NCBI GenBank assembly: GCA_016196885.1
Contig: JACPWU010000046.1
Location: 35,285-67,284 of the forward strand
Source: Chlamydiota bacterium
Lineage (GTDB): Bacteria; Auribacterota; JACPWU01
Direction: 5' to 3'
DNA: 32,000 nucleotides
A model generated the notes under the pieces. That model did not search any database. It was not told where the DNA came from and saw only the letters and a program-made list of their open reading frames with translations. Position 1 is the stretch's first letter. The number at the start of each line of letters is the position of its first letter. Made by a program: the position numbers and the translations under genes. Shown piece by piece: positions 15,333 through 32,000 of the stretch.

Positions 15333-15345
15333 TAATATAGATTTC

Positions 15346-18300: not shown

Positions 18301-21063
18301 AGCAACCTTCCCCTTCCCTTCTTTTAAGAGAATGGAGACAGACTGAACCTCTTCTAAAACACGAACGGAATCATACGAATAACTTCTATCCCGATACGTC
18401 AAAACATTGTTCCAAGTTTCTCTAAAAACTTTCACCTCAATTGAATCCAAAACCTTTGATATTTCTCCCTGACCTGTGACCGCAGCCACGTCAAAATCAG
18501 AAGGAGATCCTGGTGCCATCCTCCTAGATACGGGAGAACGAAGCGCCAAATAATAGGAAGGACCATCAATGAACAATTGCTCTGTCGAGCTCACCGCCCG
18601 CCCCCCCATTTCTTGGACACTGCCTGTAACCGTCAAAAGCCAAGGGCCCGCATAAGAAAATGTTTTGTCCTTCATTTTAGAAAGAGAAGCCAAATCAAGT
18701 TCCCATTTTCCCTTGCCCTGTTCATCCAGCTTAATGGGAGGCAATTCAATCGATTGACCTTCAGGAAGAGGCACCCCAAATGTCTTTAAAGTTTCTGCGC
18801 TGTCTCCAAAGGTCCAACCTTTCCATTTTTTCGAACGAAAAGAAGTGGGATCCAAACGTCCCGTCAAAGTCGCATCGCCATTTTTGGCCGGCTGGCCAAA
18901 AAGATAATCCCCTTTGATTTTAGCCTGAAGGGATTTATCTGAAAGTTTGTAACGCCCGCGTTCAGATGGCCTTAATTTAAGAGCCATTTTCATTCGATTG
19001 GGAACAAATTCCTCTACCAAAAATGAAGCCAATCCAAATTCTTCTTTCTCTTCCTTTCCAGATTTAGGAAGTCCCACGCAAACAGACCACCTCCCCGTCG
19101 GAATATCCTTTGGCAACTTCATAGAAAGATGAGACATGCCATTGGAATCCATTTTGACCATACGTCCCTTCCACTCTCGACCCTCAGGTCTGTAAAATTG
19201 CCATTTCACTGGAAAACTTTCAGGAACGGTAAGCTCTGAGCCTCGAACAATCGCCCAAAGATGAATTTTTTCTCCAGGACGGTAAGCCCCTCTCTCTGAA
19301 TAGACAAAAGCTTCATACCCCTTTCTTAAATAAGGCGTTCCGGAAACATCAAAATTAGAATAAGAAAGCTGGCTTGACCTTAAATCAAGCCAGGTGAGAC
19401 CTGTTTTTGAGGAATCAGAGGATGACAACTCTGCAACCACAATAGCAGGCCTCTCATCCTCCTTTATTTCTATTTTTTCTATTCTTGCCACCCCCTTTGA
19501 ATCCGTAAGCGCCTCTCCTAAAAGTTGATTTTTATCCGAAAAAAGTTTAATTCTAACTTTTTCCATCGGTTTTGCAGTCGCCAAAGAAATTGCCCACACA
19601 AAAATGCCGCCTGAGAACTGCTTTGCAACAAGGCCCACATCAGACAAGGTTACAACCGTAGAAGCCGATAAATAATAGTAGGCATCGTAAGTTCTATTTT
19701 CCTGATCTGGTTTTATTTTAATTTCATAAACCCCATCTCGAGCGATATCCTTGGTGAGCAATTCATCCAAAGACAGGCGTATGTCTTGAATTTTATTTTT
19801 CTCCACATTTAACTTCAAAGATTTTTCAGCAACAACCTGACTCAATTGACTCAAGCCATACCACCTGCTTTCATAGACCGTATTTCTCCACGCCACAATG
19901 TTGTTTTCATACATTCTGGTCACAATCACCTTCACATTTTCAATATTCACCGCATGGGCCAGCACCGCCCGGTTTCCTTGGGAACCTAAATAGCCTTGTT
20001 CCTGTTCAAACCACAGTTGAGGTTCTCGATCATCAATAAAAACGCTAAAAAGATCCGAACGTGGATAAATCTTTTGGGAATTTGAAACAGCAGGTTTGGA
20101 TATTTTTAAAGCATATCTTTGCCCTGGGATGAAATCTCCTTCTAAACTTGCCCCAAACCATTCCTTCATGCATGTGAAAGGCACCTGAGGCTCAACCGAA
20201 AGCACTTCTTTAAGAAGCTCCGTATCCATGTTGTTGTTCGAGTAAAGACGAATCTTGATTTTTCCCCGTGAAGAAGAATAGGGTTCAACTCTCGTGATCA
20301 TGAGTTGATTGCTTAAGACAAGCGTTGCTTCATAAGGAGCAGCCAGGCCCAAAGGACCACTCACCCCGCAAAGCCCCGCATCCAAATGAACCATCACCTG
20401 AGGAAAGGTCTCATGGTCTAGCTGTAGAAGAGGCGTTGGCTCTGTTATGATTCTGATGACATTCCCCGTACTTTCCCCATACAAATGGAAAGAGATGGCT
20501 TGATGATCCAAAGATTCCATTTTTAAACATTTCAGGGCTTCGGTAGATAAAACATTGTTGTTAAACTCGATCTCCAGCATAAATTGATCTCTTTCGTCAA
20601 AAGCCGCTTGGCGTATGGAGATCACTTCAAGAGGCGCCGTCTTCACAGTCACCGAAAAAGAACTGTTTGAACATCCCTCTTTTGAAAGAAGAGTTTTTTC
20701 TGGCAAAGTAAATGTAAAAGGAGTGGTCTTTGGAAGGTCTATTTCAGGTGTAAAAGCGAGCTTTCTGGGACCCAGCCAATCCCAATGCCCCTGGACGAGA
20801 TAAGGAGACTGAGAGGGTGTTTGAATCGTAATGGGAAGATGAGCAATCTCTGGAAAGTTTCGGTATTTTTCATCAATATCCAGATTAAATTCCCAAACCA
20901 GTATCGGTCGAGCCCCCACAACTGCATCTACCCCCGGACTAAATTTTATGACCTGCAAAAGATTTTCATTTTTAAACTGATTGAAATGAATATAACCCAA
21001 CCAAGCCCCGATATTTGCTACCGCAAAACAAGAAACGGTCATCCAAAATTTTTTGCTCAACAT
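15346..21063 (-). CDS. yfhM: Bacterial alpha-2-macroglobulin family protein with intact thioester motif
   Basis: About 1,905 aa of repeated beta-sandwich (MG-like) sequence. YPHGCAEQT thioester motif at 16729-16740, an N-terminal hydrophobic anchor, and upstream partnership with pbpC. Start set at ATG 21063 (GGAG 6 nt upstream) rather than the GTG at 21075. Confidence 0.9.
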   Translation of the reverse strand: MLSKKFWMTVSCFAVANIGAWLGYIHFNQFKNENLLQVIKFSPGVDAVVGARPILVWEFNLDIDEKYRNFPEIAHLPITIQTPSQSPYLVQGHWDWLGPRKLAFTPEIDLPKTTPFTFTLPEKTLLSKEGCSNSSFSVTVKTAPLEVISIRQAAFDERDQFMLEIEFNNNVLSTEALKCLKMESLDHQAISFHLYGESTGNVIRIITEPTPLLQLDHETFPQVMVHLDAGLCGVSGPLGLAAPYEATLVLSNQLMITRVEPYSSSRGKIKIRLYSNNNMDTELLKEVLSVEPQVPFTCMKEWFGASLEGDFIPGQRYALKISKPAVSNSQKIYPRSDLFSVFIDDREPQLWFEQEQGYLGSQGNRAVLAHAVNIENVKVIVTRMYENNIVAWRNTVYESRWYGLSQLSQVVAEKSLKLNVEKNKIQDIRLSLDELLTKDIARDGVYEIKIKPDQENRTYDAYYYLSASTVVTLSDVGLVAKQFSGGIFVWAISLATAKPMEKVRIKLFSDKNQLLGEALTDSKGVARIEKIEIKEDERPAIVVAELSSSDSSKTGLTWLDLRSSQLSYSNFDVSGTPYLRKGYEAFVYSERGAYRPGEKIHLWAIVRGSELTVPESFPVKWQFYRPEGREWKGRMVKMDSNGMSHLSMKLPKDIPTGRWSVCVGLPKSGKEEKEEFGLASFLVEEFVPNRMKMALKLRPSERGRYKLSDKSLQAKIKGDYLFGQPAKNGDATLTGRLDPTSFRSKKWKGWTFGDSAETLKTFGVPLPEGQSIELPPIKLDEQGKGKWELDLASLSKMKDKTFSYAGPWLLTVTGSVQEMGGRAVSSTEQLFIDGPSYYLALRSPVSRRMAPGSPSDFDVAAVTGQGEISKVLDSIEVKVFRETWNNVLTYRDRSYSYDSVRVLEEVQSVSILLKEGKGKVAVTPSGGGSYVVSIRDPKMGTLTSESFYVSEGEGWEDSISRERPDELKIKISPVRVGEKTEVVIRSPFPGTLLLTLETDHVIFHQVQEMTESYVTVPIDMTEEFRPNAYVSATVIQPVKSDAPWKMHRAFGVTRLRVENEDEKLLLKVDGPKEARPKTKVRIAVEVRNPTGEPVCNASVTLALVDEGILQLTDFSTPDPFEFFHQTRGLGVSGSDLYSELFPEIPALNPKSAVGGDGSGYNPRHLSPVSPQRIQNVALVSKILHSNSKGKVVAHFSLPEFSGSLRVMVIAHAGNLFGAMDQPMIVRSPLMFQTTLPRFVAMKDHFEMPITLFNHTGQKGSANLSIELKDEKAVLRFTNSSEKNSKSSLPLATESGYPLAGGRESGWSRETETMGRVREGGDLNPPSPNPSHLGRGILMENGGQVTLSIPLEAGEAMGTAHLYIEAELNGEKYTQELELPVRPPYPITSVGSDATVTPGHPMEIKIPEKWVSQTAQLNIRVFPFSTFNIVNALNYLNEYPHGCAEQTLSTAFPLIGLTKVGEKFFPDLFEKKYVTQRVDTTITRLIGMQTLDGGIAMWPGYREIWPWASVYAAHFLVEAESLGYEIPLDFRDRLFLYLQKLMKETSDNPDTLEIQAYACFVLAKAGKPERSIMTRLEELLKNPVVSEHEIYPSTRFYLALAWFYAGRRDLAMDLIPQDFARPRQSRELEGNIGSPIRDQSILAQALMELDPENAAIPKLIQEIAQAGDDKKWGSTQDYAFALMALGQYLEKVDMGEPFASCELGSDSEKILETKGGEALSWTSLNQDVIGKNFLVKIQGSEQAKGYISWTVTGVSKEAPKNEDHGISIRRKYLDQNGKPLSMNEIKSGDLIQVELDLETTITYDNLVIEDLLPAGFEIENPRFNTTAQLSNPDAVSAFVDSRVDIRDDRLVLYGKMSKGRATYTYLVRAITPGTFTIPPVRAQCMYDISINSLFGAGETLTISSKN
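17056..17206. repeat. Second copy of the 15251 element, carrying a nested ~66-nt insert, inside the a2m reading frame
   Basis: 17056-17125 and 17192-17206 align almost base for base with 15251-15332. 17126-17191 is extra and contains the hairpin ACCCGCAAGCGGGT. Translated in frame as ..PLAGGRESGWSRETETMGRVREGGDLNPPSPNPSHLGRGI.. Confidence 0.85.
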
Positions 21064-21333: not shown

Positions 21334-24300
21334 CTACATCTGCGTCTGAGTCAAATCCATCATAGCTTTGAGAGAGGCGAGGCGTTTGGTGGACCGAAGT
21401 TGAAGATGCCTTTTTTGATTCATCTCATCCATGGCAGGGGGATCTATCGACCGAAGGTCGTCACTTATTTTTTGTCCATGCTGGGCTAAAATGTCGAGAA
21501 TCACAGCCAGCTTGGCTTGGTCTAACCTTCCCTCCACAACCCAAGCCATGACACTATTCAACTCATCTCCCAAGCGTTCTTTCAAAGAAGAGGACACAAA
21601 CCATATTTCTTCTAAACTCTGACCCGTCATCTCCTGTCCAAAGCGCTTTTTCGCCTCTGTCTGAATCATCTGAAGGTAATTTTGAGGTGAAAGACGTGTC
21701 TTTCCTTCCCGGATGACAAAAACCTGAACATTCTTGAGATTTGGAGAAAGGCTTAAGGCCTGTCGGGCTGACTTCTCTAACACTTCATCACTTTCTTTAA
21801 CATTTTCATTCACAAAAACAGGAATCAATCCCTTGAAATCTTCTTCTTTTCCGGCCTCTCTCAAATCATTTAGATATTGATTCAAGGCTGTCGGATCCAC
21901 ATGCATTTGACCCTGATCCGTCACAGAAATTCCGACAATATCCTGATCCATGATAGAAACTTGATGGGCGGGAAGATGAGAGATTTGCTCTCGATGTTGC
22001 GTTTTATAAACCCGCCCCATCTCAACCCAAAGAGAACTGCAAACCACTTCTACTTCATGGGTAGAGGGATTGATCATCCTGACCCGTGCAATCACATGAG
22101 CCCTTTCACTTGAACCAGGCTCTTCAGGCAGATTTAAATCCAAAGTTGCCGGATTCTGACCCTCCCAAGATTCAAGGGCTGTTAATAAGTAGGAAAGAAA
22201 TTCTTCGTCTAAATTGGCGTTTACGATATGAATCCTAGAGGATCTTGATGTTAGGACAAGATCCCTCGTTACTCTCGGGATGACACTTTCAGTAGAAGGA
22301 TCTTCCCACATCGCCGCCAGTAAATCATCCAGATAAAGACTTTCAGTATAGTCTGAAAATCCTTCATACTGAGGAATGTGTCTCGGAAGTTCTCCTTTTC
22401 CATTCATGATAAAATTCGCTATTTTTTCAAGCTCTTGATCCTTTAGATCTAATCCGCGAACAGCTCCTGCCAATTGCAAAAGATCCCTAAAAATAGCTGA
22501 TTTTGCCTGCCGCCTTCCTTCTTGATCCACTTTCTCTCCCTTCTCCATGGCCCCAATCAATTTTAATACAGCTTGCCTCAAAGCTCCCACTCTCACATTT
22601 TCTCGAGTGATCAATCGAACCACTCTATCTAATGCCTTCTCAAAAGCCTCATCTCGATCTAGCTCGTTTGTTTGACCCATCAAGAGTCGCAACTGATTGA
22701 GAAGAAGCCGGCGAGCATATTCATCTACCCCCCTCTTAGGGTCAAGTCTTTCCTTGACTACATCTCTACCCAGCACCGTCGCCACCCACTCCTCCCATCC
22801 CAGCTGAACAGGCCTTCCCTCTTCCATGAGCCATTTGAGTTCACAAATATTTTTGTCTGCATCATAAGCTATAAGGTCTGGATACTTTTCGGATAATTGA
22901 ATCAGTTCTTGAATTTCATTTTCATAATCTTCTTGTGCCAACTTCATCCTTCTCTGTTCCTGAAGAGCTTTTTCGTGAAGGTCTTCCAAGAAGGCATATT
23001 CTTTTTCTGTCATGATCTGACGCGCTTCTACATTCCGGCCTATTAAATAATCTTCCAATCTTTGAATAGATTGAGGAATGAGAGAAACACCCTCCACATC
23101 TTCCATAAGTCTTTTTCGCCCTCGGGCTTGGTTTTTTGCCTGGATGGCCTCTCTCAAAGTATAAAAATCGTGATTCTGATTTTGATAAAGTTGTTTCATC
23201 TCTCTCATCCATTTTCTAAGCCCATGAAAAAACAGGGTAAATTTCTTTTTGGATTGACTAGATTTAACACCCATCAGAGTCTCCCTATCGCCCATCACAA
23301 CCAATCGATCTATCGAGCGACTCAAAGCCACATTCAAACGATTCAAATTTCGAATATGACCCACCTCTCCAGCAGAATTGCTCCTGACAAAGCTGTAGAT
23401 CACCACGTGGTTTTCCCTGCCTTGATAGCTATCTACCGTTGAAACTTGCTCACGAACAAGCCCCTCTGCTCGATCTGGATTCATATCTCTTTTCTGAGTT
23501 AAATAACTCTTTAAAAGATCTCTTATCAAATCCACTTGTGCAGCGTAACCGGTTAAAATGGTGATCTGTTCAGGTCTATAACCCGAAAGCAGGGCACGCT
23601 GATATTCCCGAAGAGCTTGTTCAGCCTCTTTCAGATTTTTATAACTTTTCCCTTCTTTCTCTTCATTGGGATGATTTCCTTCCATAGGAACATCTACCAT
23701 TCTCAATGTATCCCTTTCCATCATTCTCCAATACTTAGGAACCATCAACCTTCTATAAAACAATAAACCCACTAAAACTGTAATCGCAGGATGAGATCGA
23801 TAATTTCTCGCCAAAAATACTTGTGGGTATCCTCGATCCCATCTTCGACCCATGCCACTTCTCTTCATCAGTCTTAAAAATTCTTTTCCATGACCCGCCA
23901 TCCATTGACTTTCAAAATAAGGCTGCAACTGTCGATGATCCCCTGCTAGAACAACTTTCTCCCGAGCCTTGGCCACAGCCAGCAAAGTCTCCGCCTCATT
24001 CACAGTCCCGGCTTCTTCAACAATCACAACATCAAAATCATTTCGATAAGTCTCCGGCACAAGACCCATGGAGTGAATCGTCGCACCCACGACATAACCG
24101 TTCCCGTTTAAATTCCAACGGTGTTCACATATCCTAGCTCCTTCTCTATCATATTGATTAAAATTCTGACGATCTCGAACCCAATACTTTCTCAACTTTT
24201 CAAGAATTCTCTCATCTCCTCCACCATCTACCCCTTTGTTATACACACGCATGATGGGAAGTTCTATTTTGTCTAAACGGGCCAACAAATGATCCACAGC

Positions 24301-27300
24301 ACGATTGGTCCTGCTCACGACCATCACCCTTTTACCCTGCTGAACAAACTGTTGAACGATCCCGACCAATGTGGATGTCTTTCCACTGCCCGCCCCTCCC
24401 TGAATCAGAATGACATTGGCTTTAGGATTCAGGGAAACGTCTTGCGCATGGGATTGAAATGGATCGTTCTCAGTATTTCTGTCCATGCCAGAGTGAGCAT
24501 CCTCAATATCCAATCTAGATATAGGCGTTGGTTCTCTCAAACCTAAAAACTCTTTCACGGCATCCGTTGCAGTACCCTCTTCTATTTTCTGCTTCAAATC
24601 CATTAAAGCGATAGCCATCGCCCTTTGAAGTTCAGGACGCATCCCATTTTTACTCGCTCTTCCATCTGTTTTAAGTTTGGCAGTTCCTGCTATCAGCATG
24701 TCTAATTCATCTAAGACTTCTTTTCTTGTCCGTGTCTTAAGAAGAAAACCCTTTTCACCTGGAAGTTGCATAGAGGCAACTTCCGCTTCCCCATTAAATT
24801 CTCCATCTAAAACAGTTATGGACGGAAGTGTAACATTCCATTTCAGGGCGGCTACCCACAAAGGGCGGTTGGGCATCATCCCATTCAAGAGAGACCATAC
24901 ATCATTCCCAAAGCCCCCAGCTTCGCGTTCCCGAAGCGCCACTTGGACCTGCTCAACATTTGAATAACCCGAAGAGAGTCTTGGTTGAAAACCAATAGCG
25001 TTCCCCTTAAGAACCAGACGATGAAATCGAAAAATGGTTTTTCGATGAAAACGTTTTCTCGTCTCATAAATCCAACCTGCCAAGCTATCATCATAAAATC
25101 GTCTTATCTCAACAGGACCTTGACCCGGGCCTGTAGGCAAAACAACCCTCTTTTCCATTTTCTTTTTGAGTTCGCCTCGACCCGTTTCTTCAGTCCACGT
25201 CACGACAACTCTTCCAAATTTATCTGCCTTAAGGCTCCACGGACCTTCGAAAGGTTTCACAGCATTTTTCTCTAAACCTTTTTGACCCATTCTGACATGT
25301 TGAACAATTCTTTCCTCACTCGGATCAAACGGTTTTAAATCCAAATGTTTTTTATCTTCATTCCAGACCATTCTTAAGAAATTGATAAACTCTTCTCCTG
25401 CCACCACACGCCTCGTCTTGTAAACCCATCCCCATTCTGGATCAAAAGTACGACTCAATTTTGCAACCGATGGACATTCTTTTTTTGTTCCGGTAGCAGC
25501 CGAAACATGATGTTCCTTTTTTTGTTCGTCGACCCAATAAAAAGAAATATCTCCTCGAGCATCCGTGGGCACTTCCCAATCTTCAAAAGGCTCTACCGCC
25601 TTGCGTTTCTGGGCTTTGGTTTTTGACATTCTTAGATGAGCAACGATTTGTTCTCGAATAGGATCTTCAATCGGTTCAAACACCCAATGTCCCTTATCTT
25701 CTTCCCATTTCAACCGAGATTGACAAATAATGGTTTTAGATACTCCCTCTTCCGCCACCCTTCTTCGAGTTTCATAAATCCATTCTTTTCTCATGGAATC
25801 AAAAAACCGCCGAACCTCGGCTTCTCCTTCCTCTATAGAACCTGTAGACAATAACGCACTGTTTTTGCCCCAGCCATACGTCAGTTTGCCATTGCCAATC
25901 GTTCCTTGTTTCCACCATCCCAATTCCCTTACTGCATCTGACTTCTGAGCCTCACTCTTTCCCATACTCAGATGAGCCACAACTTCTCGGCGCATTCTAC
26001 CCAGCACCGTTCTATCTAAATTTTTAAACGTCCAAGAGTTATGACTCTCATCCCACTCCAACCTGGACTCGCTGATGATAAATCGGCGACGCCCATTCTC
26101 ATGAACTTCTCTACGCGTTCGATAGACCCAACCCCATTCACGCGTGTAAAAACGCATCACATCTACCCAGACTTTTCCACTGTTCTTACTTCCACTTGTG
26201 GACAAATACCTCTGTTTTCTGACGCCATTGACCGTCACGCTAAACAACAACTGACCGTCATCATTCGTTTCTTGACACCATCTGACGGATTGCGTCCCTT
26301 CCAATTCCAAATGCGTTAACTGATAAACTGTCTCGGCCTTACCCTCTTCAGAACTCAACTCCTTTGCCCGAAGCCACTGATAAACCCTCTGCGCAAAACC
26401 TAACCCTTCTTCTTGCAACATTGTTCTAAACATCGTGAGTTCTTCCACCGTTATCTTCAACTCTTGAAGGACATATTCAATATCCTCTTCCAAAAGCATG
26501 GCCTCTTCTTCTATCGTGTTACCTACACCCGACTCATGCCTGAGTTCATGCCTCAAACCGAGCTTCAATAATTTCAACCGGCAAGCAGGAGAAATTCTTG
26601 AGTTAAAAACTTGACCATTGATGCCAATAAAACCGTTCGTTTGATGATCTTCAAAAAGGTGAGTAGAACTTGAAAGGAGGGATAGAATAATTTCATTACC
26701 TTGCGGAGGTGAATGATCAAACTGCTCAGCCAAATATTCTTTCAAAAACTTTTCAAAATCATTTGAACCCTCAAAACCAAAAGCTGTAAACCTAGACAAA
26801 ATCTCTTTATCTATCCACACCGCTTTACCTGCAATCTCACCCAAAGATTTTGACTGGGCTTTAACTTGGCCTTTTATCTGCTGAATATCTTTTCCTTCTA
26901 TCCCCTGCCCCCACCACATCATTGGGCCCTCATTTTTGAGCTTTAGCCCTTCCATGTTGGCAATATTCGACGGAGCAGGTCCTGACACTCCAAATTTGCT
27001 TTCCCATTCTCTACTCAGAGGATCCACAAACAAATATTGAAACAAAGGATGTTGACCCTTATCTATAACATCTCCAACATCATGAGTTATTTTTTCCTGA
27101 CTGAGTCCTCTTCCTGAATAAAGTAGACCCAGGAAAAATACTTTATCATTGTCATTTAGCATTCTTTTTAAAACACGCTCGTTTTCAAATGGTGGGGCAT
27201 GTCCCAGGGCAGACTCCAGATGAAGGGCAAAAATCCACTCATCAATGTATATGCCTCTCATATACACATCTATGGTGTTCCAAATCATCCGGCGAAGATT

Positions 27301-28806
27301 CAGTTTTTGCTTTTGATCTAACACTCCCCGTTTCAAAATTTGATTAAAATACGTTCTGGAATTTTCATCTTGATTGTATTCCAATTGAAAATCATTCTGT
27401 CGCTCTCTTAAAACCAAAGCAATGTATTCCATCGCTTGCTCATTTGCCAATATCTCAGGCCAAAATCCCAGGGCCAATCGCCTCTGAAAAAGGACACGTA
27501 AGGAGCCATCTTCTTTCAGACGCTCAACCTGTAATCTTCGATCGCTTCCCAAAATTTTTCCCATTTCTTCTGTTATTCTCTTATGCTCTTTCAGGTAAGG
27601 CGTATGATCTATATGAAAGGCCTCATGTGCCATAAACGCCTCCAAGGCATATTTTCGATAAGCCTCCGTTATTAGATCCAAATTAACCGTCAGCTTTTGA
27701 TCCAAAGGCTCCATGGTCATGGGTGCTTTAACCCCTTTTCCGCCTCTCCCTCTAACAACCACCAGTTGAATTTCACGTGTGCGTAGTTTTTCAAGCAATA
27801 CTTGTGCTTTTTCTTTCTGGGGAGATTCCAGCATGCCTTCTTGAATGGACTGAAGCTTTTGAAGAGCTTGCGCTTGATCACTTAAAGCAGGAGTATTCAT
27901 AAAAGAATTTGAAGAAGAAGGTGCTACTGGAATTTTGCTTTCTTTTTTCTGAGGCCTCAAAAAACCTAACCAATAAGAGACTCCAACCACGCCAACAACA
28001 CCCAATCCACCCAAAAACCATCTTCTTGAAAAAGTTTTTGACTGTTTTTGTAACGCGACAATCAATGCTGAACTCCCTTGAAATAAATCCACCGATATCA
28101 AGTCTCGTACAGCAATCCCCAACTCTCTTGCATAATCAACATCTTGATCAAACAGCTCTTTTTCAAACGCATCCAGCTCTTCATCCAACTTCTCTTTCAT
28201 CTCATGCCTCAACTCATGACGAAGGCCCAAATTAAGGAGTTTAAAAAGAAATGAGTTGTCTATATTTTGTGCAAATAGCTGTTTGCTGATACCTATAAAT
28301 CCATTGCCTTGATGGTCTTCAAAAGGATGGCGGGAATTTTCGAGGAGGGAAATCACAAAAGCACCCGCATATCCAGCTTTTTCACGAGAGCGCACCTGAG
28401 CTAAAAGCTGACCCTGCTCTGCATCCGTCATACGATCCATTTGCTGCTGAAAAGCCTGACGAATCAGTTCTACTTTTCCTAAATCTGCTCCCGGAAAATC
28501 AAAAACAGCTTCAACCTGACTCCCCTTTTCATCTCCATGGCGTAAAACAAAACTCTCTTTCTTTCCTTTCGAATGGATGAAGCGCTTATATTCCTTCAAT
28601 CTTTCTTCATTCGTCAAATCAATCCGTTTTCCATTTTTAAATCCTTGGCGTTTTATCCAAACTCCACTTTCTCCCTTCTTAAAACTGAGCCCTTCCATGT
28701 GGGCAATGACTGAGGTCAGATCCTGTAATTTAACCTCTGGAAGTTCTTGCCGCTCCACATTTCGATTGACTCTCTTTGATAGAATCTTTAGAATCCGCTC
28801 CATCAT
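21334..28806 (-). CDS. Minimal version of the giant gene (2,490 aa) starting at ATG-ATG 28806
   Basis: MMERILKILSKR.. is the first in-frame Met pair after the antisense stretch. Everything downstream (HELRH modules, repeats, helicase motifs) has normal protein-like composition. No good SD at a canonical distance (GGAG 14 nt upstream), so the start is uncertain. Confidence 0.6.
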   Translation of the reverse strand: MMERILKILSKRVNRNVERQELPEVKLQDLTSVIAHMEGLSFKKGESGVWIKRQGFKNGKRIDLTNEERLKEYKRFIHSKGKKESFVLRHGDEKGSQVEAVFDFPGADLGKVELIRQAFQQQMDRMTDAEQGQLLAQVRSREKAGYAGAFVISLLENSRHPFEDHQGNGFIGISKQLFAQNIDNSFLFKLLNLGLRHELRHEMKEKLDEELDAFEKELFDQDVDYARELGIAVRDLISVDLFQGSSALIVALQKQSKTFSRRWFLGGLGVVGVVGVSYWLGFLRPQKKESKIPVAPSSSNSFMNTPALSDQAQALQKLQSIQEGMLESPQKEKAQVLLEKLRTREIQLVVVRGRGGKGVKAPMTMEPLDQKLTVNLDLITEAYRKYALEAFMAHEAFHIDHTPYLKEHKRITEEMGKILGSDRRLQVERLKEDGSLRVLFQRRLALGFWPEILANEQAMEYIALVLRERQNDFQLEYNQDENSRTYFNQILKRGVLDQKQKLNLRRMIWNTIDVYMRGIYIDEWIFALHLESALGHAPPFENERVLKRMLNDNDKVFFLGLLYSGRGLSQEKITHDVGDVIDKGQHPLFQYLFVDPLSREWESKFGVSGPAPSNIANMEGLKLKNEGPMMWWGQGIEGKDIQQIKGQVKAQSKSLGEIAGKAVWIDKEILSRFTAFGFEGSNDFEKFLKEYLAEQFDHSPPQGNEIILSLLSSSTHLFEDHQTNGFIGINGQVFNSRISPACRLKLLKLGLRHELRHESGVGNTIEEEAMLLEEDIEYVLQELKITVEELTMFRTMLQEEGLGFAQRVYQWLRAKELSSEEGKAETVYQLTHLELEGTQSVRWCQETNDDGQLLFSVTVNGVRKQRYLSTSGSKNSGKVWVDVMRFYTREWGWVYRTRREVHENGRRRFIISESRLEWDESHNSWTFKNLDRTVLGRMRREVVAHLSMGKSEAQKSDAVRELGWWKQGTIGNGKLTYGWGKNSALLSTGSIEEGEAEVRRFFDSMRKEWIYETRRRVAEEGVSKTIICQSRLKWEEDKGHWVFEPIEDPIREQIVAHLRMSKTKAQKRKAVEPFEDWEVPTDARGDISFYWVDEQKKEHHVSAATGTKKECPSVAKLSRTFDPEWGWVYKTRRVVAGEEFINFLRMVWNEDKKHLDLKPFDPSEERIVQHVRMGQKGLEKNAVKPFEGPWSLKADKFGRVVVTWTEETGRGELKKKMEKRVVLPTGPGQGPVEIRRFYDDSLAGWIYETRKRFHRKTIFRFHRLVLKGNAIGFQPRLSSGYSNVEQVQVALREREAGGFGNDVWSLLNGMMPNRPLWVAALKWNVTLPSITVLDGEFNGEAEVASMQLPGEKGFLLKTRTRKEVLDELDMLIAGTAKLKTDGRASKNGMRPELQRAMAIALMDLKQKIEEGTATDAVKEFLGLREPTPISRLDIEDAHSGMDRNTENDPFQSHAQDVSLNPKANVILIQGGAGSGKTSTLVGIVQQFVQQGKRVMVVSRTNRAVDHLLARLDKIELPIMRVYNKGVDGGGDERILEKLRKYWVRDRQNFNQYDREGARICEHRWNLNGNGYVVGATIHSMGLVPETYRNDFDVVIVEEAGTVNEAETLLAVAKAREKVVLAGDHRQLQPYFESQWMAGHGKEFLRLMKRSGMGRRWDRGYPQVFLARNYRSHPAITVLVGLLFYRRLMVPKYWRMMERDTLRMVDVPMEGNHPNEEKEGKSYKNLKEAEQALREYQRALLSGYRPEQITILTGYAAQVDLIRDLLKSYLTQKRDMNPDRAEGLVREQVSTVDSYQGRENHVVIYSFVRSNSAGEVGHIRNLNRLNVALSRSIDRLVVMGDRETLMGVKSSQSKKKFTLFFHGLRKWMREMKQLYQNQNHDFYTLREAIQAKNQARGRKRLMEDVEGVSLIPQSIQRLEDYLIGRNVEARQIMTEKEYAFLEDLHEKALQEQRRMKLAQEDYENEIQELIQLSEKYPDLIAYDADKNICELKWLMEEGRPVQLGWEEWVATVLGRDVVKERLDPKRGVDEYARRLLLNQLRLLMGQTNELDRDEAFEKALDRVVRLITRENVRVGALRQAVLKLIGAMEKGEKVDQEGRRQAKSAIFRDLLQLAGAVRGLDLKDQELEKIANFIMNGKGELPRHIPQYEGFSDYTESLYLDDLLAAMWEDPSTESVIPRVTRDLVLTSRSSRIHIVNANLDEEFLSYLLTALESWEGQNPATLDLNLPEEPGSSERAHVIARVRMINPSTHEVEVVCSSLWVEMGRVYKTQHREQISHLPAHQVSIMDQDIVGISVTDQGQMHVDPTALNQYLNDLREAGKEEDFKGLIPVFVNENVKESDEVLEKSARQALSLSPNLKNVQVFVIREGKTRLSPQNYLQMIQTEAKKRFGQEMTGQSLEEIWFVSSSLKERLGDELNSVMAWVVEGRLDQAKLAVILDILAQHGQKISDDLRSIDPPAMDEMNQKRHLQLRSTKRLASLKAMMDLTQTQM

Positions 28807-31800
28807 GGAAGAGAAAAAGTCTCCAAAACCCGTTCCTACTTCTGAAGAAACCCAACGATACAACTCCGTTCTGATTGAGGAAATGCGAGGCCAATTTAAG
28901 GTGATTGGAGAAGGACTGACCAGCTTTAGGAAAGAAGCTAATGAGAAATTTGATACCCTATACGAGATGGTTGCCAAAAACACTGAAGATATTGGAGATG
29001 TCCGCATCCGAATGGGTCGGGTTGAAGAAAAACTTGAAAGAATGGAAGGGGACCTTCGCATCATCAAGAACCAAATCAAAGTCAAAGTAGACCTTGAAGA
29101 ATTCAAATTGCTAGAAGGTAGACTTGTCATTGTCGAAAAACGGCTTTCAGCACTCGCCTCTTGATTTTTTTCCACGACAGCTCTTAAATACTCCAAATTC
29201 ATCTGATGATGTCGCCACATCGTCAGAGCAAAAAGTCCTACACCAAAAAATCCAATCACAAACCAATGGGAACGAAAGAATTGAAGATGAGGAACAACAC
29301 CCAACCCATTGACACCTCTAGGAAGGGTTGTTAAACTTCCCTTATGGCCCCTACCAAAACGATTTTCTACCTGGTTGCCTTGAACTCCAACGTAAGACGA
29401 AGACATAAACATACCCGGATAGGGAAGACAGTTACGAGTTTTTCCGTCCAAATTAAAATTTCCCATAACAGGATCTGGAAGGTCATTGTCAGGTACGATA
29501 CCGCTCATGGCTTTGCCCATAGAGACCTGATCAGGGCCAGTGGAAAGGTTGACAAAAACCCACTTTTCGTTCAGAATTACAATGAGGCCTTGGATACTGC
29601 TGAAGCTGATCTTCGTAACAATTGGGAAAGTTACGTTGACAACTTCCTGAAGGAGAATGAATAATGACGGAAAAAATCTTGTTTGAGAAAAATCTAGAAC
29701 TTTCAACAGAATTCTCAAAATACGTTTTGTCTCACCCAGAACTGGATGATCAGATTCCTGAGGGGGCACAGATTGTCTTCTTACTTGAGAGCGACCCTGC
29801 CCTTTCCAAAAAAAATCTTGAACTCGCCAAAGAACAGCATGAAGAAGGTCAACCTGTTGTCCTTGTTCACGTGGAGGGACTTCGTCCCGAAGTTTCTCGC
29901 CTGATCTCACCCCGTCTTGAAAAGGCTGTTGGGTTTTAGCCACAACAAATTGATTCAAATACCCCAAATTCATCCGATGATGTCGCCAAGTCGTGAGGAC
30001 AAAAAATCCCACGCCAAAAGATGCAATCATCATCCAATGGGAAGAAATCAAGAAAAGCGTGTAGGCAACCGAAACCGCAGCAAAATTCTCTAATGCAATT
30101 CTAAATATTCCAGACCACGGTGGCGCACGAAGACCCAGTTCTTTAAGCAATCTCTTACGTCCTGGAATATGCCCAACCGTAAAACTTGCCCATACAAAAG
30201 CCAAAATCCCAAAACCAGCAAATCCTCCTGAAAGGACCGCCAAAGCACTCAAACCCCAAAATGTCACGTGCTCAATTGTCGCTTGATGTTCAAGCTCAAT
30301 CTCCAACCCTTTAAAAACTCTAAAATTTTCAATCGCCCAAGATAAAAGAGGGATTATGCCTGCTTCGGCCTTTTCAGTTACACTCTCAGCCTCTGAAAAC
30401 GCCGGGAAAAAGCGGTCCAAAACCGCTAAGGTTTCATCGGGGCTGTGCACTTCCCGAAAGCATCCTCCCAAAGGCTGCATCCAGAGGTCACCGTCCAGAC
30501 TCAGGCTCGGATCATTTCCAATGGCCAGCGCTTGTCCGGGAACAATCCCCCTTTTACTCATCATAAAATCTCTTCCAACCGCTTTCGTAATGCCTTTCGG
30601 AACAATGTGCCAACCATCTTCCGAGACTTCGAGCTTCTCCGCCATAGCCCTAATTTGATCATCTGGTTTTTGTTTAAGCTGTTCGACTAAACGTCCGCCA
30701 CTTCCATAGGCCTCCAGAGAAGCCCCACGATTGTGCACTGATTCTCCTAACACCTGTGCCAGTTGGCTAAAATCAATCTCTTGTTCTTCAGCCTTGTCAT
30801 ATTTCTTAGCCCAACTTTCCTCCTCCCATAAATATCCTTGAGCGGATCCACAGGGGAAAAGACCTATTCTATTTAGAATAGGGTCCCGTTGCTCTGGCGT
30901 CCAACCCTGCATTCTCTCTTCTAAGGGGCGAATGACATTCTTTCGCAATTCTTCCATGCCCTGCATCGTGACGACCATGAGAGAAAGATCGGCATGGCTC
31001 CATAAAATGTTCACCAGCTTCTCTACCATTTGTGACGAAAGAGGTGTTTTTTTAGGCGTTACTAATGTTCCATCCAAATCGAGGGCTAAAAGATGAATCT
31101 CATTTTCGGCATGATTGGCTTGCAGAGGAAAAGATGAATCATCTCGAAAGATTTCTTTAAATGTCTCGCCCTCTATAAAATCGTTCCATAGTCCTCTCAA
31201 ACCATTCGTCAGGCGCCAGCTCGTCTTAAGCTTCCAGCCGCCATTGGATCTTTGAGCAACCAACTGTCCTTCCCTCTCTTTACCCTTGTCATCCCAGCGC
31301 TTCCATTGCAAGGCATTCCCACTGAGATGCAAACGATCTATATTCGTCTTACGAGGTAGCGCCGCATGACAGAAAATCCATTCCTGCCCTTGCGTCCCTA
31401 ATCGCGGTTCACCTGTCTCATTCGAACTATCGTACCCCTGAGGCACTGGCTCATAAGGACCATCGAACTCTCCCAGAAGAGGAGCAGAATGCTCTACTGG
31501 ATACCACGCCCTTGGGTACCAGAATTTCACCTCCGTTCCCTGACGCCTGAGCAGCCCAAGACTATTCGCAAACCACGCCTCCCAACTTTGAGGAATAGCA
31601 ATACCCTTCGATTTCATCAAATAGCAGAGATACCCTACGAAAGCCGAAGGATAATGAAACTTGTTTGGAGAATGTTCAGGACTTTCCATGGATCCAAATG
31701 AAACATCTACCACAATCACCTGCCTCGCCCGCCCTATCTTGGACTTTTCCTCATCAGAGAATACATCGTCAAAATATCCAGTGAATCCCACATTCTCAAT

Positions 31801-32000
31801 CTTGCTCGATCCAATTTTTGTTTGAATCACTTGAATATTTGTTCCCAAAATATAAGTGTTTCCATCCACACGCTCATCCGTCAATGCCGCGAGAGGAAAC
31901 CAGCCATTGGTTAAATTAGCCACCACAACCATGGCCTGATCAGCGGCTTCATAACTTCCCAATGATTCTTTTAAAGCCTCCCTTCGCTTCAGAATAAGAT
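21334..32000 (-). CDS. Maximal giant ORF (>3,555 codons, 5' end open at the window edge): HAD-like + membrane block + HExxH modules + novel repeats + SF1B helicase
   Basis: No in-frame stop from 32000 down to the TAG at 21334-21336. The track start at 31962 is a TTG and the frame continues open upstream (..LILKRREALKES-LGSY..). Most of the translation looks like genuine protein, but 28805-29939 is antisense to better plus-strand genes (see findings). Confidence 0.55.
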   Translation of the reverse strand, partial: LILKRREALKESLGSYEAADQAMVVVANLTNGWFPLAALTDERVDGNTYILGTNIQVIQTKIGSSKIENVGFTGYFDDVFSDEEKSKIGRARQVIVVDVSFGSMESPEHSPNKFHYPSAFVGYLCYLMKSKGIAIPQSWEAWFANSLGLLRRQGTEVKFWYPRAWYPVEHSAPLLGEFDGPYEPVPQGYDSSNETGEPRLGTQGQEWIFCHAALPRKTNIDRLHLSGNALQWKRWDDKGKEREGQLVAQRSNGGWKLKTSWRLTNGLRGLWNDFIEGETFKEIFRDDSSFPLQANHAENEIHLLALDLDGTLVTPKKTPLSSQMVEKLVNILWSHADLSLMVVTMQGMEELRKNVIRPLEERMQGWTPEQRDPILNRIGLFPCGSAQGYLWEEESWAKKYDKAEEQEIDFSQLAQVLGESVHNRGASLEAYGSGGRLVEQLKQKPDDQIRAMAEKLEVSEDGWHIVPKGITKAVGRDFMMSKRGIVPGQALAIGNDPSLSLDGDLWMQPLGGCFREVHSPDETLAVLDRFFPAFSEAESVTEKAEAGIIPLLSWAIENFRVFKGLEIELEHQATIEHVTFWGLSALAVLSGGFAGFGILAFVWASFTVGHIPGRKRLLKELGLRAPPWSGIFRIALENFAAVSVAYTLFLISSHWMMIASFGVGFFVLTTWRHHRMNLGYLNQFVVAKTQQPFQDGVRSGEKLRDEVPPREQGQQVDLLHAVLWRVQDFFWKGQGRSQVRRQSVPPQESDHPVLGETKRILRILLKVLDFSQTRFFPSLFILLQEVVNVTFPIVTKISFSSIQGLIVILNEKWVFVNLSTGPDQVSMGKAMSGIVPDNDLPDPVMGNFNLDGKTRNCLPYPGMFMSSSYVGVQGNQVENRFGRGHKGSLTTLPRGVNGLGVVPHLQFFRSHWFVIGFFGVGLFALTMWRHHQMNLEYLRAVVEKNQEASAESRFSTMTSLPSSNLNSSRSTLTLIWFLMMRRSPSILSSFSSTRPIRMRTSPISSVFLATISYRVSNFSLASFLKLVSPSPITLNWPRISSIRTELYRWVSSEVGTGFGDFFSSMMERILKILSKRVNRNVERQELPEVKLQDLTSVIAHMEGLSFKKGESGVWIKRQGFKNGKRIDLTNEERLKEYKRFIHSKGKKESFVLRHGDEKGSQVEAVFDFPGADLGKVELIRQAFQQQMDRMTDAEQGQLLAQVRSREKAGYAGAFVISLLENSRHPFEDHQGNGFIGISKQLFAQNIDNSFLFKLLNLGLRHELRHEMKEKLDEELDAFEKELFDQDVDYARELGIAVRDLISVDLFQGSSALIVALQKQSKTFSRRWFLGGLGVVGVVGVSYWLGFLRPQKKESKIPVAPSSSNSFMNTPALSDQAQALQKLQSIQEGMLESPQKEKAQVLLEKLRTREIQLVVVRGRGGKGVKAPMTMEPLDQKLTVNLDLITEAYRKYALEAFMAHEAFHIDHTPYLKEHKRITEEMGKILGSDRRLQVERLKEDGSLRVLFQRRLALGFWPEILANEQAMEYIALVLRERQNDFQLEYNQDENSRTYFNQILKRGVLDQKQKLNLRRMIWNTIDVYMRGIYIDEWIFALHLESALGHAPPFENERVLKRMLNDNDKVFFLGLLYSGRGLSQEKITHDVGDVIDKGQHPLFQYLFVDPLSREWESKFGVSGPAPSNIANMEGLKLKNEGPMMWWGQGIEGKDIQQIKGQVKAQSKSLGEIAGKAVWIDKEILSRFTAFGFEGSNDFEKFLKEYLAEQFDHSPPQGNEIILSLLSSSTHLFEDHQTNGFIGINGQVFNSRISPACRLKLLKLGLRHELRHESGVGNTIEEEAMLLEEDIEYVLQELKITVEELTMFRTMLQEEGLGFAQRVYQWLRAKELSSEEGKAETVYQLTHLELEGTQSVRWCQETNDDGQLLFSVTVNGVRKQRYLSTSGSKNSGKVWVDVMRFYTREWGWVYRTRREVHENGRRRFIISESRLEWDESHNSWTFKNLDRTVLGRMRREVVAHLSMGKSEAQKSDAVRELGWWKQGTIGNGKLTYGWGKNSALLSTGSIEEGEAEVRRFFDSMRKEWIYETRRRVAEEGVSKTIICQSRLKWEEDKGHWVFEPIEDPIREQIVAHLRMSKTKAQKRKAVEPFEDWEVPTDARGDISFYWVDEQKKEHHVSAATGTKKECPSVAKLSRTFDPEWGWVYKTRRVVAGEEFINFLRMVWNEDKKHLDLKPFDPSEERIVQHVRMGQKGLEKNAVKPFEGPWSLKADKFGRVVVTWTEETGRGELKKKMEKRVVLPTGPGQGPVEIRRFYDDSLAGWIYETRKRFHRKTIFRFHRLVLKGNAIGFQPRLSSGYSNVEQVQVALREREAGGFGNDVWSLLNGMMPNRPLWVAALKWNVTLPSITVLDGEFNGEAEVASMQLPGEKGFLLKTRTRKEVLDELDMLIAGTAKLKTDGRASKNGMRPELQRAMAIALMDLKQKIEEGTATDAVKEFLGLREPTPISRLDIEDAHSGMDRNTENDPFQSHAQDVSLNPKANVILIQGGAGSGKTSTLVGIVQQFVQQGKRVMVVSRTNRAVDHLLARLDKIELPIMRVYNKGVDGGGDERILEKLRKYWVRDRQNFNQYDREGARICEHRWNLNGNGYVVGATIHSMGLVPETYRNDFDVVIVEEAGTVNEAETLLAVAKAREKVVLAGDHRQLQPYFESQWMAGHGKEFLRLMKRSGMGRRWDRGYPQVFLARNYRSHPAITVLVGLLFYRRLMVPKYWRMMERDTLRMVDVPMEGNHPNEEKEGKSYKNLKEAEQALREYQRALLSGYRPEQITILTGYAAQVDLIRDLLKSYLTQKRDMNPDRAEGLVREQVSTVDSYQGRENHVVIYSFVRSNSAGEVGHIRNLNRLNVALSRSIDRLVVMGDRETLMGVKSSQSKKKFTLFFHGLRKWMREMKQLYQNQNHDFYTLREAIQAKNQARGRKRLMEDVEGVSLIPQSIQRLEDYLIGRNVEARQIMTEKEYAFLEDLHEKALQEQRRMKLAQEDYENEIQELIQLSEKYPDLIAYDADKNICELKWLMEEGRPVQLGWEEWVATVLGRDVVKERLDPKRGVDEYARRLLLNQLRLLMGQTNELDRDEAFEKALDRVVRLITRENVRVGALRQAVLKLIGAMEKGEKVDQEGRRQAKSAIFRDLLQLAGAVRGLDLKDQELEKIANFIMNGKGELPRHIPQYEGFSDYTESLYLDDLLAAMWEDPSTESVIPRVTRDLVLTSRSSRIHIVNANLDEEFLSYLLTALESWEGQNPATLDLNLPEEPGSSERAHVIARVRMINPSTHEVEVVCSSLWVEMGRVYKTQHREQISHLPAHQVSIMDQDIVGISVTDQGQMHVDPTALNQYLNDLREAGKEEDFKGLIPVFVNENVKESDEVLEKSARQALSLSPNLKNVQVFVIREGKTRLSPQNYLQMIQTEAKKRFGQEMTGQSLEEIWFVSSSLKERLGDELNSVMAWVVEGRLDQAKLAVILDILAQHGQKISDDLRSIDPPAMDEMNQKRHLQLRSTKRLASLKAMMDLTQTQM
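23270..24450 (-). other. Upf1/DNA2-like SF1B helicase core within the giant ORF
   Basis: Walker A GGAGSGKTS (24376-24402), Walker B FDVVIVEEAG, motif III VVLAGDHRQLQP (23921-23955), NYRSHPAI, VDSYQGRENHVVIYSFVRSN and motif VI NRLNVALSRS (about 23324-23360). Confidence 0.85.
24980..26290 (-). repeat. Four tandem ~117-aa (about 351-nt) protein repeats of an unrecognised domain
   Basis: Recurring core: VMRFYTREWGWVYRTRREV (26111-26160), VRRFFDSMRKEWIYETRRRV (about 25751-25815), SRTFDPEWGWVYKTRRVV (about 25407-25456), IRRFYDDSLAGWIYETRKRF (about 25051-25107). Each of the first three cores is followed by SRLxWxEDxxHWxFxP and (I)VAHLxMxK..AQK..AV; the fourth repeat lacks these trailing motifs. Confidence 0.8.
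26420..26985 (-). other. HELRH module, copy 2 (paralogue of 28090-28725)
   Basis: IANMEGLKLKNEG ... LFEDHQTNGFIGINGQVF ... LKLGLRHELRHES; HELRH codons at 26536-26550. Confidence 0.6.
26986..27960 (-). other. Region with a third HExxH motif (AFMAHEAFHIDH)
   Basis: HEAFH codons at 27613-27627. The region follows the twin-arginine-like hydrophobic segment. No family recognised. Confidence 0.4.
27963..28035 (-). other. Twin-arginine-like motif plus hydrophobic helix (TFSRRWFLGGLGVVGVVGVSYWLG) inside the giant ORF
   Basis: SRRWFLG matches the S/T-R-R-x-F-L Tat consensus and is followed by about 20 hydrophobic residues. It could equally be an internal transmembrane helix. Confidence 0.5.
28090..28725 (-). 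other. HELRH module, copy 1
   Basis: IAHMEGLSFKKGESG ... PFEDHQGNGFIGISKQLF ... LNLGLRHELRHEM; HELRH codons at 28204-28218. Confidence 0.6.
28805..29164 (+). CDS. 119-aa coiled-coil protein of unknown function, antisense to the giant frame
   Basis: MEEKKSPKPVPTSEETQRYNSVLIEEMRGQFKVIGEGLTSFRKEANEKFDTLYEMV...LEGRLVIVEKRLSALAS has balanced, heptad-like composition. The opposite-strand translation over the same bases has 30 Ser in about 120 residues by my count. No clear SD. Confidence 0.55.
   Translation: MEEKKSPKPVPTSEETQRYNSVLIEEMRGQFKVIGEGLTSFRKEANEKFDTLYEMVAKNTEDIGDVRIRMGRVEEKLERMEGDLRIIKNQIKVKVDLEEFKLLEGRLVIVEKRLSALAS
29172..29275. repeat. Direct repeat copy A (about 105 nt), immediately 3' of the 28805 gene
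   Basis: 29186-29271 aligns without gaps to 29957-30042, with 71 of 86 positions identical by hand count. On the minus strand it encodes SHWFVIGFFGVGLFALTMWRHHQMNLEYLRAVVEKNQE. Confidence 0.8.
29344..29664 (+). CDS. 106-aa small protein with RYDTAHGFAHRD motif (first gene of a two-gene cassette)
   Basis: ..KVIVRYDTAHGFAHRDLIRASGKVDKNPLFVQNYNEALDTAEADLRNNWESYVDNFLKENE resembles, from memory, small uncharacterised proteins with an (R)YDxAHG..H motif that precede a ~90-aa partner. Its stop overlaps the next ATG (TAATG). The N-terminal 30 aa look poor, so the start is uncertain. Confidence 0.55.
   Translation: MAPTKTIFYLVALNSNVRRRHKHTRIGKTVTSFSVQIKISHNRIWKVIVRYDTAHGFAHRDLIRASGKVDKNPLFVQNYNEALDTAEADLRNNWESYVDNFLKENE
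29664..29939 (+). CDS. 91-aa small protein, DUF5647-like by recollection (second gene of the cassette)
   Basis: MTEKILFEKNLELSTEFSKYVLSHPELDDQIPEGAQIVFLLESDPALSKKNLELAKEQHEEGQPVVLVHVEGLRP.. has normal globular composition. AAGGAG (29650-29655) lies 8 nt upstream of the ATG. The family name is recalled, not verified. Confidence 0.7.
   Translation: MTEKILFEKNLELSTEFSKYVLSHPELDDQIPEGAQIVFLLESDPALSKKNLELAKEQHEEGQPVVLVHVEGLRPEVSRLISPRLEKAVGF
29940..30046. repeat. Direct repeat copy B (about 105 nt), immediately 3' of the 29664 gene
   Basis: Partner of 29172-29275 at an offset of 771 nt (257 codons). On the minus strand it encodes SHWMMIASFGVGFFVLTTWRHHRMNLGYLNQFVVAKTQQ. Confidence 0.8.
29990..30360 (-). 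other. Multi-helix hydrophobic (membrane) block of the giant frame
   Basis: IIPLLSWAIENF, VTFWGLSALAVLSGGFAGFGILAFVWASFTV, IFRIALENFAAVSVAYTLFLI and HWMMIASFGVGFFVLTTW are consecutive hydrophobic stretches of helix length. Confidence 0.6.
30470..31100 (-). other. HAD-superfamily-like phosphatase fold within the giant frame
   Basis: Motif I LLALDLDGTLV (about 31066-31086). A long cap-like insert, conserved Lys region PKGITKAVG, and a terminal acidic motif AIGNDPSLSLDGD (30481-30537). The pattern fits Cof/IIB-type HAD proteins, but similarity was judged by eye only. Confidence 0.5.

Follow-up and report, generated by a model that had tools for sequence, protein, structure and literature searches.

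A giant open reading frame of a Chlamydiota genome with zincin-like modules, a Upf1-like helicase and a nested opposite-strand gene island

A very long open reading frame found in two assemblies

We analyzed a stretch of 32,000 nucleotides (nt) from a Chlamydiota bacterium (GenBank assembly GCA_016196885.1, contig JACPWU010000046.1, positions 35,285 to 67,284), hereafter the window, whose last third is taken up by a single giant open reading frame (ORF) on the minus strand. A first-pass annotation, made from the sequence alone, had described this frame as free of stops from the window edge to position 21334 and open at its 5′ end, which translation and comparison with the public records bore out. 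Its count of more than 3,555 codons needs a small correction, as the minus frame (31998→21337) comprises 3,554 codons without a stop, followed by the stop codon at 21334–21336. Over positions 5346–31063, the window is base-identical to contig JACOUD010000031.1 (67,210 nt) of the Chlamydiota metagenome-assembled genome (MAG) GCA_016178005.1, with window coordinates corresponding to those of that contig minus 35,189. The 5′ end of the giant ORF is open because this source contig terminates 21 nt past the window, and the deposited product is a partial protein of 3,561 amino acids (aa). In the other deposited assembly, the contig has 67,284 nt, and the 3,554-aa product of the frame (MBI3266937.1, P0111 in our collection) shows 100% identity. 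Given this identical product in a second assembly and the base identity to the record, the open frame is real and reproducible across two deposited Chlamydiota MAG assemblies. The two contigs break off no more than ~21 nt apart, both within the 5′ portion of the giant ORF, which suggests a repeat or coverage problem just upstream of the shared break.

Along the giant frame, the following parts were distinguished (related proteins are introduced below; HMM, hidden Markov model; TM, transmembrane; SF1B, superfamily 1B):

31114–31998, minus strand: N-terminal region, aa 1–295, with coding-like codon usage; the frame is cut by the contig end
30439–31113, minus strand: HAD-like (Cof/Hydrolase_3-type) region, aa 296–520, with motif I LALDLDGTLV; weakly supported
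29989–30276, minus strand: hydrophobic block, aa 575–670, with two hairpin-like pairs of predicted membrane helices
28087–28707, minus strand: zincin-like module 1, aa 1098–1304, PFEDHqgNGFIGIS … GLRHELRHE (module HMM, E 1.7e-43)
27958–28032, minus strand: internal membrane anchor, aa 1323–1347, SRRWFLGGLGVVGVVGVSYWLGFL, from hydropathy and comparison of homologues
26992–27957, minus strand: HEAxH domain, aa 1348–1669, SPQKEK … FMAHEAFHIDH, following the TM anchor
26425–26967, minus strand: zincin-like module 2, aa 1678–1858, LFEDHQTNGFIGIN … GLRHELRHE (module HMM, E 5.8e-69)
24916–26289, minus strand: four tandem repeats of ~115 aa, the last partial, aa 1904–2361 (jackhmmer)
24469–24915, minus strand: conserved linker, aa 2362–2510, GGFGNDVWSLLNGMMPNRPL…LP, kept in P0001, P0002, P0003 and P0112
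23251–24468, minus strand: Upf1-like SF1B helicase core, aa 2511–2916 (Pfam AAA_11 and AAA_12)
22801–23250, minus strand: post-helicase block, aa 2917–3066, aligned in P0001, P0002, P0003, P0112 and P0120
21334–22800, minus strand: C-terminal tail, aa 3067–3554 plus stop, with coding-like codon usage, aligning loosely with the P0001 tail only

A codon-usage score trained on the window's other genes was gene-like throughout the frame except at aa ~700–1050, and a plus-strand frame outscored the giant frame at 29,150–28,700.

A nested plus-strand island inside the giant frame

The most unusual feature of the locus is an antisense island that lies nested and in frame within the giant ORF. Codons 687–1065 (28805–29939; 379 codons, ~11% of the frame) are antisense to genes on the plus strand, two of them with strong Pfam support, so that the continuous native domain string proposed at first does not hold for this part. 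The island and the elements around it are:

29957–30047, unstranded: copy R of the direct repeat; its minus-frame translation gives the last membrane helix and WRHHRMNLGYL
29664–29939, plus strand: DUF5647 gene, 91 aa (Pfam PF18882, E 7.4e-28, 96.6 bits, cut-off 27)
29344–29664, plus strand: DUF7718 gene, 106 aa (Pfam PF24839, E 5.2e-29, 100.6 bits, cut-off 25)
29309–29337, plus strand: promoter-like site TTGACA-17-TAAACT, TG-extended, ending 6 nt before the DUF7718 ATG (29344); consensus scan
29186–29277, unstranded: copy L of the direct repeat; its minus-frame translation gives a second helix copy and WRHHQMNLEYL
28805–29164, plus strand: probable coiled-coil-like ORF, 119 aa, antisense to aa 946–1065
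28766–28794, plus strand: promoter-like site TTGACT-17-TAGAAT, ending 10 nt before the ATG at 28805; consensus scan
28801–28806, minus strand: candidate internal start ATG ATG (M1065, M1066), 33 codons before module 1, which would give a 2,490-aa gene

The DUF7718 gene lies opposite aa 779–885 of the giant frame and the DUF5647 gene opposite aa 687–779, with an overlap of 1 nt between the two. Judged by their profile matches, both genes are real. A metagenome scan with DUF5647 returned one useful relative, contig L087, where the DUF7718/DUF5647 pair is found in equal order and at 62% identity, and a viral-contig scan for DUF7718 gave no match. An overlapping pair of two genes, kept as a pair in L087, is the layout expected of type II toxin-antitoxin systems and, in size and layout of the predicted genes, this one looks like a toxin-antitoxin pair. 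No match to it was found in NCBIfam, PADLOC or PHROG, nor any mention of DUF5647 in a literature search. The third ORF, predicted to be coiled-coil-like, had no homologue in Pfam and other library searches, in tblastn against plasmids and phages or in a viral-contig scan, and we therefore call it only probable. Its span scored +0.19 bit/codon in its own frame versus −0.07 in the giant frame, and the giant-frame peptide on the opposite strand is junk-like, with 25% Ser. All three nested genes are unannotated in both deposited records, and nested genes were not seen in the giant ORFs of the relatives L003–L006.

The DUF7718/DUF5647 pair is bracketed by the two copies of a 92-nt direct repeat (82.6% identical), whose spacing of 771 nt equals 257 codons and therefore keeps the giant frame. 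The copies differ about equally often at each of the three codon positions (5/8/7), and at least one copy is thus not under protein-level constraint. No further copies were present in the window or in contigs L087–L089. We also considered an integron attC cassette and rejected it, with DNA folding z-scores of −0.36 and −0.97 and a single hairpin that is not conserved between the copies; integron R′/R″ core sites were not seen by eye at the repeats. An Rfam scan of 28.3–30.4 kb returned nothing, and tRNA and tmRNA genes are absent from the window.

How surprising is this open antisense frame? Within 28400–30300, the giant frame contains no stop codon, versus 25–45 in each of the five other frames. 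Synonymous resampling, in which the three plus-strand proteins were held fixed and their codons redrawn from the window's codon usage, left the giant frame stop-free in 7%, 9.6% and 2.6% of the redraws of the three genes, respectively, which multiplies to 1.7e-4, with ~7 stops expected. Among nine control genes, the longest open run in an alternative frame was 233 codons, versus at least 379 at the island. Moreover, the identity of only 83% between the flanking repeats suggests that the event is old, and in the absence of selection stops should have accumulated since then.

Zincin-like modules and a membrane-anchored HEAxH domain

Downstream of the island, three HExxH modules had been proposed. 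The two HELRH modules stand and are homologous to each other by the module HMM, but the HEAFH region is a distinct, TM-anchored domain; since the module HMM does not match it, we rejected it as a third copy. The module spans ~180 aa with the signature LLDxSxHLFEDHxxNGFIGIN … LLxxGLxHELxHE. Across an alignment of 29 sequences, one Glu and two His, H141 and H145, are invariant, and E142 and E146 are at least 90% conserved; the HExxH residues fall within a predicted helix (128–146) of the module model. An AlphaFold2 model of module 2, built on the module alignment, reached a predicted local distance difference test score (pLDDT) of 92.5, and its best PDB folds were nearly all zincin peptidases (M1 aminopeptidases, LTA4H, selecase, M61), though as weak matches (E ~0.1, probability 0.6–0.9, TM-score 0.3–0.46). 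The module has no Pfam model, and its profile gave no match against PDB sequences. We call the module zincin-like, a putative member of the zincin fold.

About 50 proteins of 850–6,700 aa carry the LFEDH…HELxHE module, those with a named source coming from Chlamydiota, Omnitrophota, Ca. Theseobacter and Spirochaetota. The module HMM found two or three copies in 12 proteins. Its position is mostly internal, and the partner domains in relatives include LysM, amino-acid kinase and PPDK. Because the module recurs between unrelated enzyme domains in giant proteins, self-processing of a giant precursor by the module would be an attractive idea. Module 1 has its closest relative (46% identity) on L090, a noisy contig of 3,439 nt at 2× coverage. 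We noted on this contig three zincin-like modules within 3.4 kb, with other domains between them and frameshifts.

Between module 1 and the HEAxH domain lies the segment that had been described as a twin-arginine-like helix, which we now assign as an internal TM anchor. In P0114 and P0153, a TM helix occupies this position but lacks the twin-arginine (RR) motif. A twin-arginine translocation signal was rejected on these grounds, namely the internal position of the segment (aa 1323 of at least 3,561) and the missing RR motif in both homologues. The HEAxH domain that follows is 33% identical over 347 aa to P0114 of Chlamydiota (E 1e-50) and is also kept in P0153.

Repeats, helicase and the conserved core

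The four tandem repeats after module 2 were confirmed by jackhmmer at ~115 aa each, close to the ~117 aa claimed before. The AlphaFold2 model of the repeat (pLDDT 86.9) is all-beta, with seven strands and a helix, and had no significant match against PDB folds; an equivalent repeat occurs four to seven times each in P0112, P0120, P0119 and P0171.

For the helicase, the assignment to SF1B of the Upf1/DNA2 type was upheld by AAA_12 (5e-33, 114.7 bits) and AAA_11 (5e-23, 82.7 bits), both above their cut-off of 27. Of the catalytic motifs, GAGSGKT, GDHRQLQP, NYRSHP, SYQGRE and VALSRS are present, whereas Walker B reads VIVEEAG (24046–24054; aa 2649–2651) versus DEAG in P0001, P0002, P0003 and P0112, a substitution that may alter or reduce ATPase activity. 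The IGHMBP2 model TIGR00376 scored 1.5e-47 and 162.4 bits, below its threshold of 348.9. The helicase was the only part of the giant ORF recognised by the curated libraries (Pfam, NCBIfam and PADLOC), and library searches gave no family match for the C-terminal tail.

A search with aa 2380–3554 retrieved P0001, P0002, P0003 and P0004 (1,091–1,737 aa). The first three have tandem N-terminal repeats, linker, helicase and post-helicase block in common, and the alignment to P0004 covers just 29% of the query. An exhaustive search with aa 1098–2290 found 76 proteins including the giant protein itself, i.e. 75 others that share modules, repeats or the HEAxH domain, many of them 2,000–6,700 aa long. 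A scan of genome contigs (query A1) had only generic SF1 helicases among the matches listed. We observed that P0001 is the 3′ part of an ORF of ~4.3 thousand aa (L003, 697–13433), split solely by a run of N in its repeat array. The N-terminal part of this L003 ORF contains a glucosamine-6-phosphate isomerase-like domain, two HD domains and PRK-like domains, and the gene after it encodes another giant of 2,554 aa with glycosyltransferase domains.

The stretch running from module 2 through the post-helicase block forms the conserved core of a family that occurs in Chlamydiota and Omnitrophota. Its predicted domains suggest a motor for nucleic acids that would be driven by ATP, tethered to the membrane and associated with a metalloprotease. 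The analysis supports the general proposal that the product is modular and very large and combines membrane segments and an SF1B helicase with zinc-peptidase-like modules.

The N-terminal part of the frame

Upstream of the island, aa 1–686 have a codon usage of ~0.23 bit/codon, versus 0.26±0.10 for real genes. For aa 1–295, we found no match in Pfam, NCBIfam or PDB. A DxDxT HAD-like fold had been proposed for the following region; its motif I is present, and the fold itself is only weakly supported. Indeed, Pfam Hydrolase_3 matched aa 438–496 only in part (E 0.027, 14.6 bits, cut-off 20.9), and the HAD proteins 3niw and 3dnp came up in a PDB search with non-significant values (E 0.27–1.4). By eye, motif I (DLDGT) and motif IV (GND…D) can be made out. 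Kyte-Doolittle peaks at aa 584–611 and aa 634–668 mark the hydrophobic block.

A word-index protein search with aa 1–690 returned nothing, and neither did the same search with aa 1060–2450, for which the exhaustive search later found the 75 others. Both long queries gave zero matches despite the identical proteins P0111/P0192 in the collection. The search is hence insensitive, and since it missed the self protein, such long-query negatives do not show that homologues are absent.

One gene or two

The earlier suggestion of a stop-less fusion of cistrons came near in one respect, as 379 codons are antisense to opposite-strand genes that had gone unseen. On balance, we lean towards one giant, membrane-anchored modular protein that is translated through the nested antisense island. 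The window would then hold the 3′ 10.6 kb of one very large environmental Chlamydiota gene. Its product would run from the N-terminal region through the HAD-like domain, two membrane-hairpin pairs, a zincin-like module and the TM-anchored HEAxH domain to the second module, followed by four all-beta repeats, the linker, the Upf1-like 5′-3′ helicase and the tail. The opposite-strand island would sit inside the membrane block, where a 92-nt duplication in register would preserve the frame, and a ribosome would read the 379 antisense codons as an unstructured insert rich in Ser, Leu and Val, with a second copy of the last helix. The whole frame would thus yield one polypeptide. Its modules may carry out metal-dependent proteolysis, possibly cutting the giant protein into pieces, ATP-driven unwinding of RNA or DNA may take place at the membrane, and the island promoters might interfere with transcription of the giant gene. 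Several observations argue for this reading. The codons for aa 1–686 are gene-like and lack a stop of their own, so that translation must continue onward. Giant single ORFs of like class exist (3,164 aa in P0112, ~4.3 thousand aa in L003 and many of 2–6.7 thousand aa), and internal TM anchors before domains are kept in relatives.

A number of points weigh against it, most of which fit a possible, though less probable, arrangement of two minus-strand genes with the three-gene plus-strand island between them. The large gene would start at M1065 and encode 2,490 aa, the upstream HAD/TM ORF would be separate or decaying after loss of its stop, and the open frame would be a coincidence without meaning for the protein. 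Homology to relatives indeed starts at aa ~1057–1098, just past M1065/M1066, and the ORF on L090 starts ~26 codons before its first module, to be compared with the 33 codons between M1065 and module 1. P0002 and P0003 stand alone as genes, their upstream neighbours being divergently oriented, and no homologue ties aa 1–686 to the family, the sole search being the insensitive one that missed the self protein. The plus-strand units have promoter-like sites of their own, the giant frame is non-coding-like opposite the coiled-coil ORF, and the differences between the repeat copies do not favour third codon positions of the minus frame. Furthermore, the antisense frame of the L087 cassette (L087 5–862, minus strand; 57% GC) is likewise stop-free, over 285 codons that span both genes, which could be chance at 57% GC or a property of the cassette. 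The window was, moreover, chosen for its long open frame, and under such a choice a chance of 1e-4 to 1e-5 may still be met. Finally, the enzymatic roles are predicted solely from motifs and weak fold matches. Against two genes, on the other hand, stands the coincidence that they need, roughly 2e-5, from (1/3) × 1.7e-4 × a spacer term. The upstream ORF would also be gene-like in codon usage yet stop-less, leaving no discrete product. M1065 has no minus-strand promoter-like site and no good Shine-Dalgarno sequence upstream, and its ATG shares 2 nt with the ATG of the divergent plus-strand ORF, so that such signals would have no space. Modules of the zincin-like type are also usually internal in giant proteins.

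The junction could also be an artefact, either a chimeric MAG consensus or a homopolymer error in a population with separate genes, which we deem very improbable. The source is a metagenome-assembled genome, the upstream break shared by both assemblies hints at a difficult region, and an A7/T7 run (29166–29172) lies exactly at the junction, with repeat copy L on one side and the plus-strand coiled-coil ORF, at its 3′ end, on the other. Errors may be frequent in this run, or it could act as a switch by slippage; if it were one base longer or shorter, the upstream frame would meet a stop (at 29147 or 29127) within 6 to 15 codons, which also counts against a single protein. However, seven-base homopolymers are seldom miscalled in short-read consensus, the translations from two separately deposited assemblies are identical over all 3,554 aa, the window agrees base by base with the public record, and a chimera is not expected to produce an in-frame, stop-free junction of 1.1 kb. 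A further alternative concerns function rather than gene structure and sees in the giant ORF a Mokosh (MkoA)-type anti-phage defence protein fused to accessory domains. The PADLOC MkoA model PDLC03920 matches aa 2529–2939 with E 3.7e-59, NCBIfam models for PLuB helicase-like (1e-26) and ProA (3e-8) proteins respond as well, and the chromosome is rich in toxin-antitoxin genes. Yet the PADLOC match is limited to the generic Upf1-like helicase core (model positions 633–1102, its helicase part only), and all NCBIfam scores are far below the cut-offs. The neighbours are housekeeping and envelope genes, and the closest relatives lie amid housekeeping genes or beside other giant enzyme genes. We rejected the assignment to Mokosh, and consider such a function highly unlikely, because the PLD nuclease domain is absent from the ORF and from the downstream genes (a2m, pbpC), the upstream side lying beyond the contig end.

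Neighbourhood and implications

Downstream of the giant ORF, after a gap of ~270 nt, lie a complete bacterial alpha-2-macroglobulin gene (1,905 aa) and pbpC (13069–21063, minus strand). The adjacency to this a2m-pbpC pair had been pointed out before and is correct, but nothing connects the ORF to the pair functionally. Elsewhere in the window, a PIN-domain gene (193–612, plus strand) and a HEPN/nucleotidyltransferase pair (3349–4072, minus strand) occur amid housekeeping genes. Even without counting the nested pair, the chromosome segment abounds in genes of the toxin-antitoxin type.

Read as one protein, the frame would present a clear natural case of Pfam-recognisable genes fully nested antisense in a bacterial coding sequence that they leave unbroken. 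On a bolder reading, in which selection keeps the frame across the island open, the coding sequence of the giant gene would lastingly harbour an antisense operon of the toxin-antitoxin-like kind, the giant protein would contain an insert translated from antisense sequence, with the membrane helix duplicated in it, and convergent transcription from the two island promoters would gate expression of the downstream module-helicase part. The modules, in turn, would cut giant precursors into membrane-anchored enzymes, a polyprotein strategy common to Chlamydiota and Omnitrophota. That both halves hold jointly, with selection keeping the island frame open and the modules forming a new family of self-processing zincin peptidases, appears doubtful to us. 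Should the open frame be coincidental, very long ORFs in MAGs can hide opposite-strand genes and inflate reported protein lengths. The ~180-aa module and the all-beta repeat offer starting points for the function of giant proteins in host-dependent bacteria.

Comparison with known systems

The combination of domains had been called unprecedented, which can no longer be maintained, as 75 other proteins share parts of it and P0112 has the order module, repeats, helicase. The nearest proteins are P0112, P0120, P0001, P0002 and P0003, which form an uncharacterised family of repeats, linker and Upf1-like helicase. P0112 (3,164 aa, a complete gene on a 186-kb contig of GCA_964640155.1) is 40% identical over aa 1852–3066 and has ~115-aa beta repeats (six copies), linker, helicase and post-helicase block in conserved order, with a degenerate zincin-like module directly before the repeats. 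It differs in its own N-terminal part of 1,500 aa with a signal anchor, in its short tail, and in lacking the HAD-like domain and the nested island. P0002 and P0003 differ in having only 1,091–1,458 aa and other repeat types. The module-bearing giants of Omnitrophota and Chlamydiota (for instance P0115, P0118, P0121 and P0126) share the 180-aa module at 30–53% identity, often in two copies, and join it to various enzyme domains and TM anchors, but their partner domains are different ones; among the relatives examined, module (in degenerate form) and helicase occur together only in P0112. With the Upf1, IGHMBP2 and MkoA helicases, the giant ORF has in common the full AAA_11/AAA_12 core and motifs I, III, IV, V and VI. 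Unlike them, it has EEAG instead of DEAG, lies within a protein of at least 3,561 aa, and comes without a PLD partner or the Upf1 CH domain.

Giant genes of Omnitrophota have been described that encode more than 30,000 aa with SecA_DEAD domains and beta-helix filaments and whose products are predicted to be largely extracellular; peptidase domains were proposed to process the larger precursor (West-Roberts et al., bioRxiv 10.1101/2023.11.21.568195). The present ORF resembles these giants in belonging to the Planctomycetes-Verrucomicrobia-Chlamydiae (PVC) lineage, in its great length, its many TM regions and its peptidase-like domains, but SecA_DEAD, beta-helix filaments, a largely extracellular prediction and a size above 30,000 aa are not seen in it. 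Giant modular proteins of PVC bacteria are hence already known; neither the helicase-bearing family nor its module and repeat had a description in the libraries and literature searched. The literature search found no description of the source assembly either.

For the island, the nearest parallel is offered by the Rickettsia palindromic elements, which Ogata and colleagues reportedly described in 2000 as mobile DNA that lies in frame within protein-coding genes and is translated. As at our locus, foreign DNA resides in an ORF whose frame stays unbroken and would add an extra peptide to the host protein. In contrast to these elements, the present insert is single and non-palindromic, measures 0.8–1.2 kb and carries functional-looking opposite-strand genes with promoter-like sites of their own.

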